A stretch of 64,000 nucleotides of DNA from Gammaproteobacteria bacterium (lineage in GTDB: Bacteria > Pseudomonadota > Gammaproteobacteria > UBA4575). The notes below the pieces were generated by a model. It searched no databases, was not told where the DNA came from, and saw nothing but the letters and a program-made list of their open reading frames with translations. Where the stretch lies: positions 480,001-544,000 of the forward strand of contig CBDCTA010000029.1 of the NCBI GenBank assembly GCA_965221955.1, written 5' to 3'. Of this stretch, positions 8,485 to 27,684 are shown piece after piece (position 1 is the first letter of the stretch; each line of letters starts with the position of its first letter). The position numbers and the translations under genes are program-made.

Positions 8485-8539
8485 AGACAAACAATTCTGG
8501 ATAACCAAAGCACTCGCTAAGATGTCTCAAGAAGAATAG
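8474..8539 (+). pseudogene. Stub resembling the N-terminus of downstream ycgN
   Basis: TTG-started [21 protein letters not shown] versus SKFWETKSLKEMSKSEW. Confidence 0.7.
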
Positions 8540-8604
8540 GTGAGACAGGGCTGTGTGAATAAGAGTTGCAACATGGGTGTTGCATCAAATTCGAGTTAAT
8601 CATA

Positions 8605-22919: not shown

Positions 22920-24359
22920 GTGCAGCAGCATTTTCATACTGGTAATCCGTTAAAAATACAGGCATCAAGATTAGCTCAAATTCTAATCTATTCCATTTCT
23001 GTGTTAGTAGGTTCAGTGTTTTTCATGCTGAGCACTTCCAGTTTTGCTGCCAACAATATTGCTCAAATCAGTGATCTTCGAATTGCCGATCGCAAGACAG
23101 AAACACGAATAGTTTTCGATTTAAACGCACCTGTAAAGCACAGTATTTTTGTACTAAAAAATCCAGACCGTGTAGTGTTGGATATCGGGCAATGCGATGC
23201 GAATGGCAAGCTCAAAGTGGGTCGCGTGGGTGGCACACTGGTTAAAGATTTGCGTTATGCACAAAAGACGAATGAAAAATTACGCGTCGTATTTGATTTA
23301 AATTCACCGGTATCCCCAAAAAGCTTTTTGTTGCCACCACAAAGTGGCAAGGCCTATCGATTAGTCATCGATCTGACTGCGACAACTGCGCTTACAACGG
23401 CTCCAAGTGAAACAAAAAAGCCGCACGCTGAACCTGTAGTAGCTATGAAAGATGCACCTGTAAGCCGTCGTGATGTCGTCATCGCAATTGATGCAGGTCA
23501 TGGAGGTAAAGACCCGGGTGCAATTGGTCGTGGAGGCACGCGTGAAAAAGATATTGTGCTTTCTATTTCTAAAAGACTTAAAAATCTAATTGATAAAGAA
23601 CCTGGAATGAAAGCAGTGTTAATTCGAGATCGTGATACTTTTGTTCCGTTAAGAGGAAGAATTAAAAAAGCCAGCAAGTTAAATGCTGATATTTTTCTTT
23701 CTATTCATGCGGATGCTGCAGTAAATCGTCGTGCTAAGGGTTCTTCGGTATATGTGCTATCGCAACATGGTGCAACCAGTGAGGCCGCGCGTATCTTAGC
23801 GCAACGCGAAAATGCGTCAGATAAAATTGGTGGGGTTAGCCTAGAAGACAAAGATGATGTGTTGAAATCGGTATTGGTCGATTTATCACAAACCGCGACC
23901 ATTGATGCCAGTATCGACTTAGCAGAAGACATTCTTAACGAGCTCGCTAAAGTTGGAAATATATTACGAGACGAAGTAGAACAAGCGGGTTTTGCAGTGT
24001 TGAAATCGCCCGACATTCCATCTGTTTTAGTTGAGACTGCATTTATTTCAAACCCTGCAGAAGAAAAGCGTTTAAAAACAACAACGCATCAACAAAAACT
24101 TGCTACCGCAATTCTTAAGGGTTTACGTCGTTATGCAAAAGATCATGCTCCTGCAAATGCAATTTTGGCGAGTGCTCCGACTCCTACACCACTGACTAGA
24201 TACACCATAAAACGTGGCGATACCTTGTCTGGCATTGCGGTACGTTACAAAGTCAGCATTAGAGATTTACGCAAAGCGAATGGATTGCGTTCAGATGTAC
24301 TTAAAGTAGGGCAAGTATTAACCATTCCAACATCACCTATGGTTACTGCTGGCGCGTAA
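22920..24359 (+). CDS. amiB: N-acetylmuramoyl-L-alanine amidase (AMIN + Amidase_3 + LysM)
   Basis: IDAGHGGKDPGA, SIHADA, LVETAFISN, C-terminal LysM; exact start uncertain. Confidence 0.93.
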   Translation: MQQHFHTGNPLKIQASRLAQILIYSISVLVGSVFFMLSTSSFAANNIAQISDLRIADRKTETRIVFDLNAPVKHSIFVLKNPDRVVLDIGQCDANGKLKVGRVGGTLVKDLRYAQKTNEKLRVVFDLNSPVSPKSFLLPPQSGKAYRLVIDLTATTALTTAPSETKKPHAEPVVAMKDAPVSRRDVVIAIDAGHGGKDPGAIGRGGTREKDIVLSISKRLKNLIDKEPGMKAVLIRDRDTFVPLRGRIKKASKLNADIFLSIHADAAVNRRAKGSSVYVLSQHGATSEAARILAQRENASDKIGGVSLEDKDDVLKSVLVDLSQTATIDASIDLAEDILNELAKVGNILRDEVEQAGFAVLKSPDIPSVLVETAFISNPAEEKRLKTTTHQQKLATAILKGLRRYAKDHAPANAILASAPTPTPLTRYTIKRGDTLSGIAVRYKVSIRDLRKANGLRSDVLKVGQVLTIPTSPMVTAGA

Positions 24360-24387: not shown

Positions 24388-24498
24388 TGCGCACGGATGC
24401 GCAATTATATTGTGAGTCTAGGGGTATGCGAATATGATTCGCAGAGAGGGCGACCTACAGAGATGTTGGAAGTGCTAGAAAGCAGGATGCAGTTTCTA
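24388..24498 (+). other. Cluster of short hairpins, some with GGA loops
   Basis: TGCGCA-CGGA-TGCGCA; TGCGAAT-ATG-ATTCGCA; CTAGAAA-GC-AGGAT-GC-AG-TTTCTAG. Confidence 0.5.
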
Positions 24499-24570
24499 GT
24501 GAGACGCAACTGATTAAAGTCCAGTGATTTTAATTAAGCGCAGGTTGGGGAGCTCAAAGCATATTTTCAA

Positions 24571-24600
24571 AAAGTCAGCTTTCGGTCAATAGCAGACATT
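24571..24600 (+). repeat. 30-bp palindromic cassette-boundary repeat R1
   Basis: AAAGTCAGCT-TTCGGTCAAT-AGCAGACATT. Confidence 0.8.
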
Positions 24601-24614
24601 CAATGTATCACTTA

Positions 24615-25181
24615 CTAGCAACATTGATCCTTATTTAAGCTGTTTTTTTGCTTATACTCGATCACCTTTCCAAAACGATCCTTTTCAATTTCACAACAAG
24701 CTAGAAGTTCTTCTTTTAATTTAATGCGTCCTCGCTGTATACGTGACTTCATTCCTGAAACCGAAATACCTATTCGCTCTGCGGCATCAGCTTGCTTAAT
24801 TTCATTGAAGTCTGCTAATAGCAGAGCTTCCTTGTATTTCGGTTCCAGCTTGTTTGTAAGTGGTCTCAAACATTTGGCAAATTCACTATCTACGTTGTCA
24901 GGCATACTTTCATAATCAGCTATTGTAGTTTCAAGGTCATTAACATCATTTGATGCATTTATATTCGAGTGTTTTCGGTAATAGTCTGTAATTCTATTTT
25001 TGGCAACGATGTAAATCCATGCAAGTGGATTTTCAGCATCAGTTAACGCGCCCTCATTTTGTAGTACGCTTAAGAGAATGTCGTGTACTAAATCCTCAGA
25101 TACATCGACATCCACTTTGGTACGAATATACTTGGTTAATAAGGATCGCAACTCATCCCAAGTTGTATTTAATTCGGACAT
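24615..25181 (-). CDS. ECF sigma factor, SigZ-like
   Basis: EDLVHDILL, AWIYIVAKNRITDYYRK, SGMKSRIQRGR, LLACC. Confidence 0.9.
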   Translation of the reverse strand: MSELNTTWDELRSLLTKYIRTKVDVDVSEDLVHDILLSVLQNEGALTDAENPLAWIYIVAKNRITDYYRKHSNINASNDVNDLETTIADYESMPDNVDSEFAKCLRPLTNKLEPKYKEALLLADFNEIKQADAAERIGISVSGMKSRIQRGRIKLKEELLACCEIEKDRFGKVIEYKQKNSLNKDQCC

Positions 25182-25586
25182 TTATGCACAACACGCACTT
25201 GATTTTGAGGCATTGGCTTCATCGGGATTATCGTTGGTTATGGTGTACCACTCCCAATTTAGTCCTTGCGGCTCGGTTGACCACACTTTGTCTTGTGTCG
25301 CAAAGCAGCATGTTGTTTGATCTTCAATTTTGTTTGCGATGTCATCACGTTCGAGTCGCTTTATTACCTCACCCAAATCATCATTTTGATCTACTTCCAC
25401 TCCAAGATGATTGATTCTGTCATTCGCATTGGGATCTTCAATCAGAACCAGCTTCAATGGTGGATTATCAATCACAAAGTTTGCGTATCCCTTTCTTCGT
25501 TTATGTGGCTTAGTATCGAAGAGTTTTGTGTAATAGCTTACAGCTTCGTCAATATTCCTTACGTTTAAGGCTAATTGTAGTCTCAT
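25182..25586 (-). CDS. ArsI/CadI-family VOC metalloenzyme
   Basis: GYANF...PPLKLVLIE, NHLGVEV, TTCCFATQDKVW, WEWY, C-terminal ACC. Confidence 0.9.
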   Translation of the reverse strand: MRLQLALNVRNIDEAVSYYTKLFDTKPHKRRKGYANFVIDNPPLKLVLIEDPNANDRINHLGVEVDQNDDLGEVIKRLERDDIANKIEDQTTCCFATQDKVWSTEPQGLNWEWYTITNDNPDEANASKSSACCA

Positions 25587-25626
25587 AGTACTTGCTCCAA
25601 ATTCATTAATTGAGTTAGTAGTAAAA

Positions 25627-25652
25627 GACGTTTCAAAAAGGAAAAGGACGCA
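25627..25652 (-). promoter_or_regulatory. Candidate ECF promoter TGCGTC-N16-CGTC
   Basis: Minus strand TGCGTCCTTTTCCTTTTTGAAACGTCTTT about 40 nt before the VOC gene; CGTC is a common ECF -10. Confidence 0.5.
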
Positions 25653-25670
25653 AAAATTAGTTAACTGGGG

Positions 25671-25700
25671 AATGCCCGCTTTGGGTCGTTAGCGGACATT
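25671..25700 (+). repeat. 30-bp palindromic cassette-boundary repeat R2
   Basis: AATGCCCGCT-TTGGGTCGTT-AGCGGACATT. Confidence 0.9.
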
Positions 25701-25743
25701 TTAAGATTGTAAATTACTGATTCCAACACATTGCGTCCCATAA

Positions 25744-25774
25744 TTTGTCTGCATTCGGCTCAGAAGTGTCCATT
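25744..25774 (+). repeat. Degenerate cassette-boundary repeat R3
   Basis: TTTGTCTGCA-TTCGGCTCAGA-AGTGTCCATT. Confidence 0.6.
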
Positions 25775-25842
25775 TGCTCGTATCTTGATTGAGTGCTTGT
25801 TAGCGACTGTATAACTTATTCAATAATACAATGAGCAATTTC

Positions 25843-26034
25843 TTAGCGTTCGATTCGAACCTCATCCATCTTGGACATCCTTCTTTTAAGTTCTTTCTCA
25901 AGGATATTTCTTGCATACGGTTTCATTCTCTTCCATTTCTCACATTCCTGTTCAGTTCGACCGCAACCCAGGCACCAGCCTTTGGGTCCTTTGAACTGAC
26001 ACACATCGATACAAGGACTTTTTTGCCGTTTCAC
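25843..26034 (-). CDS. DUF1289-family small Cys-rich protein
   Basis: SPCIDVC...CLGCGRT..E...W. Confidence 0.85.
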   Translation of the reverse strand: MKRQKSPCIDVCQFKGPKGWCLGCGRTEQECEKWKRMKPYARNILEKELKRRMSKMDEVRIER

Positions 26035-26080
26035 TGTTTATTGCACCATTTAAACGCTTGTGCTTTTTTATCAACTCAAG

Positions 26081-26521
26081 CTAGGTTTGCACTAGACTCA
26101 GTGCTTGTTCTATACCTTTTTCCAGCTGTCGAAGTCTGTTGAACTCTTCGAGTAGCCGTTGTTCCAAATTCTTAAAATTGAGAGGGAGCGTTCTTTTACA
26201 AATGCTGTATCCTTCACCGATCTGATAACCCTTCCAATTTTTTATACGATCGCTTTCTAGGGCTAGAAATTCTTGAATGAATTCCTGCTGTGAAGGGCAA
26301 TCTTCTTCTGCATGCATACAGATTGGGAAGGCTTTTTGTTTAATTTCTCTGGCTTCTATGAAAGTTTCAAAATGTATTCCTCCTTGATTATGATTGTGCC
26401 AGTTATATTTGTAGAGTTGCAGATAAACACCGCGGTTGTAAATTTCCCAACCACTATCAAACCAACTTGATTGATTAATTTTTCTTTCAAGGTTTCGAAA
26501 AACTTTTTTTATATCTTTCAT
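26081..26521 (-). CDS. Hypothetical protein
   Basis: Open ORF with YLQLYKYNWHNHNQGGIHFETFI; ATG at 26521 preferred over TTG at 26557. Confidence 0.75.
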   Translation of the reverse strand: MKDIKKVFRNLERKINQSSWFDSGWEIYNRGVYLQLYKYNWHNHNQGGIHFETFIEAREIKQKAFPICMHAEEDCPSQQEFIQEFLALESDRIKNWKGYQIGEGYSICKRTLPLNFKNLEQRLLEEFNRLRQLEKGIEQALSLVQT

Positions 26522-26629
26522 GTTTAGGATATTTCTTAATTTAAAGTCGGTAGACAAAAGCTAATAGTTACGAAACTTTGATGAAATATGGAAAAGTGCA
26601 AATACGAATCTTATTATCATAAATTAATT

Positions 26630-26659
26630 AATGTCTGCTTTGGGTCGTTAGCGGCCATT
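26630..26659 (+). repeat. 30-bp palindromic cassette-boundary repeat R4
   Basis: AATGTCTGCT-TTGGGTCGTT-AGCGGCCATT; overlaps the sohB stop codon by one base. Confidence 0.9.
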
Positions 26660-27684
26660 CAATTAAACAATTTCGAGTCTTGTTCTTTTTGCCACCAAGA
26701 AAAAAATAATTTATCTATGGTCATCTGCATGGAGGTTGCAAAACGTTCGCTGATGGTTTTAGGCACTTCATATTTAATTTCATAAATGTCTGCCTCGTTG
26801 CTCGCGTTTAATAAGTAATCGTCACTGGTAATCAGTTCATCTACGAGTTTGAGCTCAAGTCCGCGTGTGGCAAGCCAATGTTCACCTGTAGCGACTTTAT
26901 CGATTTCAAGAATAGGACGATTCTCTTTTACAAACTCTTTGAATAAGTCGTGAGTGTCTTCTAATTGCTCGTTAAAATGCGCACGATCTTCATCGGTGTT
27001 TTTACCAAACATGGTGACTGTGCGCTTGAGCTCACCTGCCTTCATCAATTCAAAGTCCACACCATGCTTATCTAGAAAGCGATTGAAGTTTGGTAATTGT
27101 GCTAGTACGCCAATGGAGCCAACGATGGCAAAAGGAGCAGCAATAATTTTGTCGGCTACGCATGCCATCATATAGCCACCGCTTGCGGCTACCTTGTCGA
27201 CTGCAACAGTGAGTGGAATACCTTTTTGTTTTATGCGTAAAAGTTGCGAAGAAGCGAAACCATGTTCATGTACTAATCCGCCAGCATTTTCTAAACAAAC
27301 CACCACCTCATCTGAGCTATCCGCTACTGATAAAATTGCTGTGATCTCTTTTCTGAGATGGCGTACAGCAGAAGCTTTTATGTTGCCTAAGAAATTAAGT
27401 ACAAAAATACGTTTTTTATCTGTATCAGGATGTTTCTTTTCTTTTTTACGTTCTTTCTTATTTTCTTTTTTTACCTTTTTTAAATCTTTTTTAGATAACA
27501 AAGCAAAACGTAGTCGATCAGACATATTCTTATACTTTTTATTTAGATGAGTGATCTCAAAATGATCATGGCTACGTGCTTTTTTCGAAAAGGAAAATGC
27601 CAGCATCATAAGTACCCAAATAAAAATCAGGGCGGTGATTGCCTTGGCAAAAAATAATCCGTATTCGGTTAAAAATTCGATCAT
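26659..27684 (-). CDS. sohB: S49 protease SohB
   Basis: EFLTEYGLFFAK, VDKVAASGGYMMAC, GSIGV, VATGEHW. Confidence 0.96.
   Translation of the reverse strand: MIEFLTEYGLFFAKAITALIFIWVLMMLAFSFSKKARSHDHFEITHLNKKYKNMSDRLRFALLSKKDLKKVKKENKKERKKEKKHPDTDKKRIFVLNFLGNIKASAVRHLRKEITAILSVADSSDEVVVCLENAGGLVHEHGFASSQLLRIKQKGIPLTVAVDKVAASGGYMMACVADKIIAAPFAIVGSIGVLAQLPNFNRFLDKHGVDFELMKAGELKRTVTMFGKNTDEDRAHFNEQLEDTHDLFKEFVKENRPILEIDKVATGEHWLATRGLELKLVDELITSDDYLLNASNEADIYEIKYEVPKTISERFATSMQMTIDKLFFSWWQKEQDSKLFN

Follow-up and report, generated by a model that had tools for sequence, protein, structure and literature searches.

Our analysis provides evidence that, in the gap between the core genes amiB and sohB of a gammaproteobacterial genome (UBA4575 lineage, GCA_965221955.1), a short palindromic unit forms the joints of an array of small, fast-changing gene cassettes, and that the same arrangement recurs at dozens of other loci. 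This descriptive part of our reading is, judged from sequence comparison, very probably correct. The window, i.e. the whole stretch of DNA analyzed, comprises 64 kb (C29:480001-544000) of assembly G000, which totals 2.69 Mb in 29 contigs (C1-C29). The unit is a 30-bp palindrome, in which the arms AATGTCCGCT and AGCGGACATT flank a 10-nt loop of either type A or type B. Comparisons between relatives and between strain haplotypes demonstrate, at the level of aligned sequence, that cassettes are gained, lost, inverted and relocated, with breakpoints inside the palindromes. As an explanation, we give an even chance to units akin to repetitive extragenic palindromic (REP) sequences and bacterial interspersed mosaic elements (BIME), or to neisserial intergenic mosaic elements (NIME), serving as the recombination joints of gene cassettes. 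That a dedicated enzyme acts at the palindrome is somewhat less probable than this.

The palindromic unit and its arrays

Searching for AATGTCCGCT-N10-AGCGGACATT with up to 3 mismatches accepted returned three matches in the window (R1, R2 and R4 in the table below, with 3, 1 and 2 mismatches, respectively), no further match within its 64 kb and none in 100 shuffles. The fourth copy, R3, departs from the B consensus at 11 positions when compared without gaps and is recognizable from its exact 73-bp offset to R2 together with a conserved linker containing CCAAC. R2 and R4 have the loop TTGGGTCGTT in common (type A); R1 and R3 carry a TTCGGCCAAT-like loop (type B). The units are spaced 1070 bp, 43 bp and about 855 bp apart, the stop codon of a sigma-factor gene lies 14 nt from the end of R1, and R4 overlaps the sohB stop codon by a single base. 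On the repeats, their spacings, the loop common to R2 and R4 and the want of further copies in the window, our results agree with the initial annotation, which had been made from the letters of the window alone and from which the second loop type, the genome-wide family and the structured element E described below could not be seen. Its gene identities (AmiB, an ECF-type sigma factor, a VOC protein, DUF1289, a hypothetical protein and SohB) are likewise upheld by Pfam; all four cargo open reading frames (ORFs) lie on the minus strand, and amiB and sohB are convergent. Its remark that amiB normally adjoins mutL has no bearing on the locus, for amiB and sohB are convergent neighbors in all 15 relatives examined. 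The gap represents one two-cassette array (VOC plus sigma factor; 158-aa ORF plus DUF1289), directly downstream of sohB and in the same orientation.

The four copies belong to a genome-wide family. At the same threshold the genome holds 129 unit copies, vs. 0 for a reversed control; lone arms are rare, the loop measures 10 nt in 129 of 131 hits, and loops fall genome-wide into the two families A (TTGGGTCGTT) and B (TTCGGCCAAT). A looser threshold yields 170 units at 46 loci, 156 of them in 32 multi-unit loci (69.5 kb in total) of which 29 are uniform in orientation. The profile scan which the initial annotation had recommended accordingly finds units bounding cassettes in at least 32 multi-palindrome loci, and the repeats are by no means randomly scattered. 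Flanking units share the same orientation in 89 of the 93 inter-unit segments of 150-3500 bp (median length 484 bp), and the order B-cargo-A (B left, A right) is found in 60 of these 89. Of 109 segment ORFs (>=50 aa), 90 lie on the strand opposite to the '+' loop orientation, so that A' precedes the gene and B' comes after it.

Neighboring cassettes are joined by 31 A-linker-B junctions, 30 of them ordered A then B, with start-to-start distances of mostly 73 bp (13 junctions) or 83 bp (11) and linkers of 43 or 53 bp. Each junction, about 103-113 bp long, is an imperfect inverted repeat in which the cargo-side arms are nearer to the consensus than the linker-side arms (274 vs. 218 Watson-Crick pairs out of 310). 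R2-linker-R3 is one such junction, and what had been taken for a 43-bp 'empty unit' is not an empty cassette; it is the conserved linker, which occurs in two lengths (unit spacing 73 or 83 bp). The 20 cargo proteins from other arrays form a mixed accessory set with no recombinase among them; two GNAT acetyltransferases, OsmC, a globin and Hsp20 are represented, as are several peptidases and hydrolases. GC skew places the cassette genes of 27 of 38 arrays on the leading strand, from which no inference can be drawn since ordinary gene-strand bias gives the same. The largest array (C23:10824-23304) begins about 700 bp upstream of xerD (G000:C23:9216-10133; with xerD-dsbC synteny), with an RDD-family gene in between, a proximity that may be coincidence. 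A perfect tandem repeat with a period of 339 bp and 100% self-identity was observed at a contig start (G000:C22:1-1926).

Arrays are bracketed by a second repeat, element E, which consists of two hairpins with GGA in their loops and stems that covary between copies. It is positioned 3' of genes in sense orientation, gave 63 nhmmer rows genome-wide, and spans about 130 nt in the copy at 24406-24533 and roughly 75-90 nt elsewhere; a second window copy lies at 8537-8601. Inverted pairs of E and its reverse complement (rcE) bracket arrays throughout the genome, and some pairs enclose little or no insert (C22:45724-45933, which reads E-unit-rcE, and C29:575427-575617). The layout seen left of R1, i.e. 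E, GGTTGG, 22 nt and the palindrome, recurs at C4:10262-10404. Element E presumably resembles a double CsrA-binding module; a csrA gene is located at C2:164402. A typical array reads gene, E, B-cargo-A, linker, B-cargo-A, rcE, gene: it sits between two convergent core genes on a platform made of inverted copies of E, with cassette ORFs mostly directed from the A side to the B side.

Table. Units, genes and accompanying elements of the amiB-sohB gap (window coordinates).
Feature	Positions	Strand	Basis and remarks
amiB, N-acetylmuramoyl-L-alanine amidase, left core gene	22920..24359	+	Pfam AMIN, Amidase_3, LysM; orthologues flank the gap in 15/15 relatives
Element E copy with an extra inserted hairpin, GGA-loop hairpins	24406..24533	+	nhmmer match at C29:504406-504533; family alignment with covarying stems
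GGTTGG, inverted CCAAC linker motif, in the leader between E and R1	24543..24548	+	read from sequence
R1, type B unit, loop TTCGGTCAAT	24571..24600	+	pattern match, 3 arm mismatches
Cassette 1 gene 2, ECF-type sigma factor, 188 aa	24615..25181	-	ORF and Pfam
Cassette 1 gene 1, glyoxalase/VOC-family protein, 134 aa	25182..25586	-	ORF and Pfam
R2, type A unit, loop TTGGGTCGTT	25671..25700	+	pattern match, 1 mismatch
Conserved 43-bp linker of the A-linker-B junction	25701..25743	+	CCAAC at 25723-25727; aligns with 15 other genome junctions of 71-73 bp spacing
R3, decayed type B unit with a 1-nt insertion and a worn right arm	25744..25774	+	sequence and folding comparison
Cassette 2 gene 2, DUF1289 protein, 63 aa	25843..26034	-	ORF and Pfam
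Cassette 2 gene 1, 158-aa ORF	26081..26557	-	no Pfam family
R4, type A unit, 2 mismatches	26630..26659	+	abuts the sohB stop codon
sohB, S49 peptidase (Peptidase_S49), right core gene, co-oriented with the cassette genes	26659..27684	-	ORF and Pfam

Cassette turnover and distribution of the unit

Among the 15 relatives, the amiB-sohB gap measures 44-205 bp in eight and contains no more than E remnants or half a unit; G001 and G010, both with short gaps, have this half unit (loop plus right arm) at the R4 position. The remaining seven carry different content. One of them, G014, has the same VOC plus sigma-factor module in inverted orientation, with a glyoxalase/VOC copy at 87% identity and a 96-aa ORF that is 82% identical to the sigma factor. 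The claim that the repeats delimit accessory modules is borne out by these gaps, and the cargo is clearly not invariant. Homologues of the 158-aa ORF (82-90% identity) are present at other loci in 8 of 40 relatives, beside a DUF1289 gene in four of the eight loci and with a palindrome within the ~3.4-kb locus in six, which answers a check that the initial annotation had proposed. Since sequenced relatives hold both empty and occupied forms of the platform, the system is directly testable.

More recent changes can be mapped because the assembly mixes two strain haplotypes at several loci (C14/C23, C10/C29, C8/C18, C11/C26 and C12/C13, at 97-99.8% identity); co-assembled haplotypes are helpful in this respect and at the same time a warning that the 'genome' is mixed. 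The flanks of the C23 and C14 arrays are 99.0-99.5% identical. C14 carries a further cassette of 1035 bp, set between two B units; another cassette is common to both, and beyond it about 11 kb in C23 face 1.5 kb of unrelated cassettes in C14, until homology returns at the last A unit; the breakpoints are inside palindromes. The C10 and C29 arrays, bounded by six and nine palindromes respectively, have flanks of 97-99.7% identity and unrelated cassette sets, and their homology ends at the terminal B and A units. One cassette was found in two arrays at 86% identity, with homology reaching from the left arm of B into A. Two haplotype crossovers could be mapped and both lie at loop borders, one inside AGCGG (loop/right arm), the other at the left arm/loop border with the loop inverted. 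These are the positions where a recombinase with a 10-nt overlap would cut, although two such events are no proof.

The unit is by no means special to the amiB-sohB gap and belongs to a REP-like family spread over several proteobacterial classes. Sampling of the family detected it in 13 of 14 congeners and in 19 of 24 members overall: G013, G016-G018 and G023 have 0 units, the remaining same-genus genomes 27-192 and genomes of other genera in the family 8-169. The core word was also encountered at more than 118 loci of Alphaproteobacteria, Xanthomonadales and other groups. Counted as ATGTCCGC-N12-GCGGACAT with at most 2 mismatches, it reaches 522 copies in a Pseudolabrys metagenome-assembled genome, 110 in a complete alphaproteobacterial chromosome and 46 in a Dyella chromosome (control 0-1). 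In the alphaproteobacterial chromosome units stand as ordered triplets, 45-46 bp apart, between small genes (G041:C1:341001-360000 and 3050001-3068000), and the triplets of Alphaproteobacteria combine the same stem with three loop types. When read in frame, hairpin triplets give short peptide-like strings, which appear at the ends of called ORFs.

Candidate enzymes and competing explanations

Sequence-specific recombination may take place at the palindrome, driven by an activity in trans that would lie outside the IntI, Y1-HUH, IS110 and TnpB families. Modules of 'cargo plus junction' would be excised or inserted by exchange between like units, much as an integron handles its cassettes. Family searches for such an activity gave the following results. 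IntI was not found in G000, where the best TIGR02249 hits are Xer-type (83 and 77 bits vs. a cut-off of 265), nor in the complete relatives G001, G010, G014 and G019 with 56, 98, 49 and 169 units. It exceeds the cut-off in 6 of 41 genomes, unlinked to unit counts: the two family members with IntI are G013, which is free of units, and G015, whose intI lies more than 20 kb from any unit. In G015, which belongs to another genus, a full-length integrase (483 bits, G015:C29:6942-8018) is followed by small ORFs leading away from it, with 135 units elsewhere in the genome; a repeat search beside this intI gave no clear attC family. Y1_Tnp (PF01797) is absent from G000 and from G010, G014 and G019, and G018 combines one Y1_Tnp with 0 units, so Y1 transposases do not track units. 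Neither IntI nor Y1 transposases are present in the Pseudolabrys, alphaproteobacterial and Dyella genomes mentioned above, and G000 is also devoid of an IS110-type DEDD transposase (PF01548), TnpB and an Rpn-type nuclease.

Two recombinases of G000, a 431-aa integrase and a 540-aa serine recombinase, were rejected as the agent, since each occurs in no more than 2 of the 14 congeners examined. This leaves XerC and XerD, which alone among the site-specific recombinases of G000 were not found to be confined to a few congeners. One dif-like site only, on the minus strand of C4 at ~89618, shows 4 mismatches to the E. coli consensus, probably marks the replication terminus region, and has no similarity to the palindrome arms. 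The initial annotation had seen no local recombinase and no attC sites. We concur on the former; the sites do not appear to be canonical attC, and they are not dif-like. Its further suggestion of an 11-8-11 tyrosine-recombinase site, excised circles and a trans-acting enzyme stays conjectural, as our searches found neither an enzyme nor a circle junction.

Searches on a broader scale were conducted as well. Rfam gave no match at E values up to 1 for the window region, four loci of the same genome and five alphaproteobacterial loci, and blastn of one junction against a plasmid collection gave none either. The core word is found in 17 viral contigs, mostly a few hundred bases from the contig end; these are high-GC and prophage-like and encode assorted serine or small tyrosine recombinases with no consistent partner. 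In three viral contigs small tyrosine recombinases lie near hairpins, and the contig ends could be host flanks or attachment regions. Proteins repeatedly encoded close to the hairpin were clustered over 118 loci from diverse taxa; the largest cluster covers 25 loci and resembles, by eye, an ABC-type substrate-binding protein, and none of the clusters is a recombinase. In four of the 8 public runs (Logan contigs), which were the ones compared, the few joints lead from the E tail to a palindrome with 22 other letters between them, one of these 22-letter inserts matching the repeat locus C3:86953, which permits no verdict on circles or alternative forms.

Several observations weigh against our explanation of the units as joints for an activity supplied in trans. 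The family searches identified no recombinase for the units, and the palindrome is unlike the dif site of the genome, XerC and XerD being the remaining candidates. No circular or hybrid junction was seen in the material, which consists of short metagenome contigs only. Haplotypes were compared at two loci, both from a single mixed assembly (contamination 4.3%). Between species, cassette proteins diverge like core proteins (82-90% vs. 82-87% identity), hence the cassette moves may be old. The copies in the window are partly worn, and their folding as single-stranded DNA is uneven (R2 -5.5 kcal/mol with z -2.0, R1 -2.2 kcal/mol, R4 without a canonical hairpin). Compensatory covariation is absent from the stems (16 double changes vs. 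22.5 expected) and from the partner arms within a junction, so a hairpin substrate is not supported by covariation. ORFs were called with a crude ORF finder, and around the triplets of one alphaproteobacterial chromosome the orientation rule is weak (11 ORFs opposite, 7 same, 20 without a nearby unit). Finally, junctions of ~103-113 bp could allow RecA-dependent exchange without any special enzyme.

The last point leads to the strongest competitor, namely that the units are ordinary structural repeats of the REP/BIME type (stabilizers of RNA 3' ends, terminator-like or DNA-structuring), which travel with accessory genes and whose turnover needs no site-specific enzyme. General processes would suffice, such as RecA-dependent junction exchange, possibly after uptake of foreign DNA, and slippage or deletion between direct repeats. 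We regard this as possible, yet on balance unlikely. Copy number, extragenic position, two unit types and set-length linkers are what such repeats display, the units lie 3' of ORFs, no recombinase family co-occurs with them, and the junctions offer sufficient length for homologous recombination. Exchange between inverted E copies can also account for the inversion that separates the G014 cassette from that of G000, and a similar role, the promotion of recombination with acquired DNA, has been proposed for the NIME arrays of Neisseria (PMC1797815). Homologous exchange, however, is hard to reconcile with the many modules split by a single 30-bp unit with unrelated DNA on either side, where very little homology is available, and both mapped crossovers fall within the 30-bp unit at loop borders. 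The arm and loop words are moreover conserved across classes without covariation, which points to sequence recognition and would be needless for a structural repeat. The order B-cargo-A, as counted above, is not predicted by this explanation.

An action of units and E at the RNA level only, as protein-binding modules of 3' untranslated regions (E, for example, binding CsrA) with the link to variable genes as a by-product, is improbable. It would fit the two covarying GGA-loop hairpins of E downstream of genes in sense orientation, the presence of csrA and the position of units 3' of ORFs. It leaves unexplained the breakpoints inside units, the fixed order of two unit types and the concentration of 156 of 170 units in multi-unit loci, and no Rfam family matches.

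Still less probable is that B-cargo-A represents a non-autonomous passenger element of the IS200/IS605 kind, like palindrome-associated transposable elements (PATEs) or REP doublets forming hairpins (REPINs), mobilized in trans by a Y1 HUH transposase (TnpA or RAYT) acting on single-stranded hairpins. The pair of hairpins, one per end and on the same strand, which share a stem and differ in the loop, the unit boundaries at the hairpins and the short conserved leader and trailer sequences adjoining them would all suit such an element, and REPs resemble the end hairpins of IS200/IS605 (PMC3333891). The Y1 results given above, from G000, the unit-bearing G010, G014 and G019, three unit-rich genomes of other classes and the unit-free G018, argue against it, as do the lack of TnpB and of stem covariation.

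The scenario that we consider most improbable takes the A-linker-B junctions for atypical attC sites and the arrays for CALINs, i.e. clusters of attC sites without an integron integrase, left by a lost or mobile-borne IntI. Imperfect inverted repeats of ~103-113 bp after co-oriented small ORFs, cargo like that of chromosomal integrons and outer arms better conserved than inner ones, which parallels the conservation logic of the R and L boxes of attC, would speak for it. CALINs are furthermore common, and IntI can insert at secondary sites, according to PMC4889954 and 10.1101/2022.09.11.507474. It is contradicted by the absence of IntI from G000, four complete relatives with 49-169 units and three unit-rich genomes of other classes, and by the unit-free or unit-distant intI of G013 and G015. 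No pair AAC...GTT, which is the attC core consensus, was seen at the junction ends. The arrays open with B alone and close with A alone, whereas an integron is bounded by an attI hybrid on one side and a full attC on the opposite side. The unit abounds in Alphaproteobacteria, a class in which Cury et al. (PMC4889954) report no integron, In0 or CALIN in 243 genomes, which argues against its being recognized as attC.

Significance and comparison with known systems

In the light of these alternatives we retain recombination joints built from REP/BIME- or NIME-like units as the preferred reading. A more far-reaching version is possible and, to our minds, rather doubtful: cassette capture independent of IntI, RAYT and IS110, in which the 30-bp unit (stem ATGTCCGC/GCGGACAT, two or three loop types) would be the site for a sequence-specific enzyme and dozens of mini-arrays would sit on intergenic platforms, in Gamma- and Alphaproteobacteria alike. 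The enzyme could be of a novel family or a repurposed housekeeping protein. The gene-capture system distinct from integrons and pdif modules of which the initial annotation had spoken is supported in part: the cassette nature and turnover of the arrays are now documented, and its mechanism and enzyme would be conjectural.

The classic means of accumulating and rearranging small genes is the integron, whose operation relies on a single integrase family. In the present case an integron-like signature, made up of short cassettes in a common orientation, structured junctions and near-identical strains that differ wholesale in content, is repeated dozens of times per genome with no integrase, RAYT or IS110 enzyme found. 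A dedicated activity, should there be one, would amount to a second and independent way of capturing gene cassettes and would provide a function for a REP-like repeat abundant from marine Gammaproteobacteria to soil Alphaproteobacteria; the capture reading would in that case reach Alphaproteobacteria, a class reported without integrons. If there is no such enzyme, the arrays would demonstrate that REP-type repeats alone can organize integron-like flexible loci, which would bear on accessory-gene turnover in small marine genomes and on the breakage of metagenome-assembled genomes at arrays. The literature searched, with subscription journals and supplementary files outside its scope, held no description of the unit or of palindrome-bounded cassette arrays, and a Xanthomonas integron preprint contains none of the words of the repeat.

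With integrons and CALINs the arrays share small cassettes, mostly co-oriented and mostly of a single gene, with imperfect inverted-repeat junctions, a content that differs sharply between close strains, and an accessory grab-bag cargo. They differ from integrons in that G000 and most unit-bearing relatives have no IntI, no AAC/GTT core pair was seen, and dozens of short arrays are dispersed over 46 loci instead of one array beside intI. Each array starts with one half-junction and ends with the other, and a junction is made of two self-palindromic units.

The pdif/Xer modules are similar in that small gene modules are bounded by short inverted-arm sites and the enzyme is encoded elsewhere. 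In contrast to pdif, the spacer measures 10 nt and not 6, the sites flanking a module are direct and not inverted, the arms are unlike the dif site of the genome itself, and the arrays are chromosomal. The PATEs of the IS200/IS605 group likewise have one same-strand hairpin per end, with the same stem and different loops, and boundaries at the hairpins; unlike them, our arrays come without Y1 transposase or TnpB, and their modules stand head to tail with a conserved linker.

The REP/BIME of enterobacteria and the REPINs of Pseudomonas are, like the present unit, short imperfect extragenic palindromes of high copy number with two variants and set-length linkers. The REPIN/RAYT system differs by its transposase, neither RAYT nor Y1 being found here. 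Judged by their loops, our units are direct and not alternating as in REP/BIME, and most of them (156 of the 170) stand in arrays with strain-variable genes between units. Their sequence is common to several proteobacterial classes, which is unusual for a REP.

The closest architectural analogue is the NIME array of Neisseria, composed of dRS3 units and RS modules. There, dRS3 (ATTCCC-N8-GGGAAT), a short unit whose ends are inverted repeats and whose core varies, flanks many module families, the arrays vary in length between strains, and they have been proposed as sites for a recombinase acting on acquired DNA; a phage-encoded transposase/recombinase is known to integrate phage into dRS3 (PMC1797815). 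G000 differs in having no IS110-type DEDD transposase. The likeness to NIME is one of array architecture only: the present unit is built 10-10-10 and not 6-8-6 and is unrelated in sequence, and its modules include whole genes of expressed size, not only repeats of 50-150 bp.

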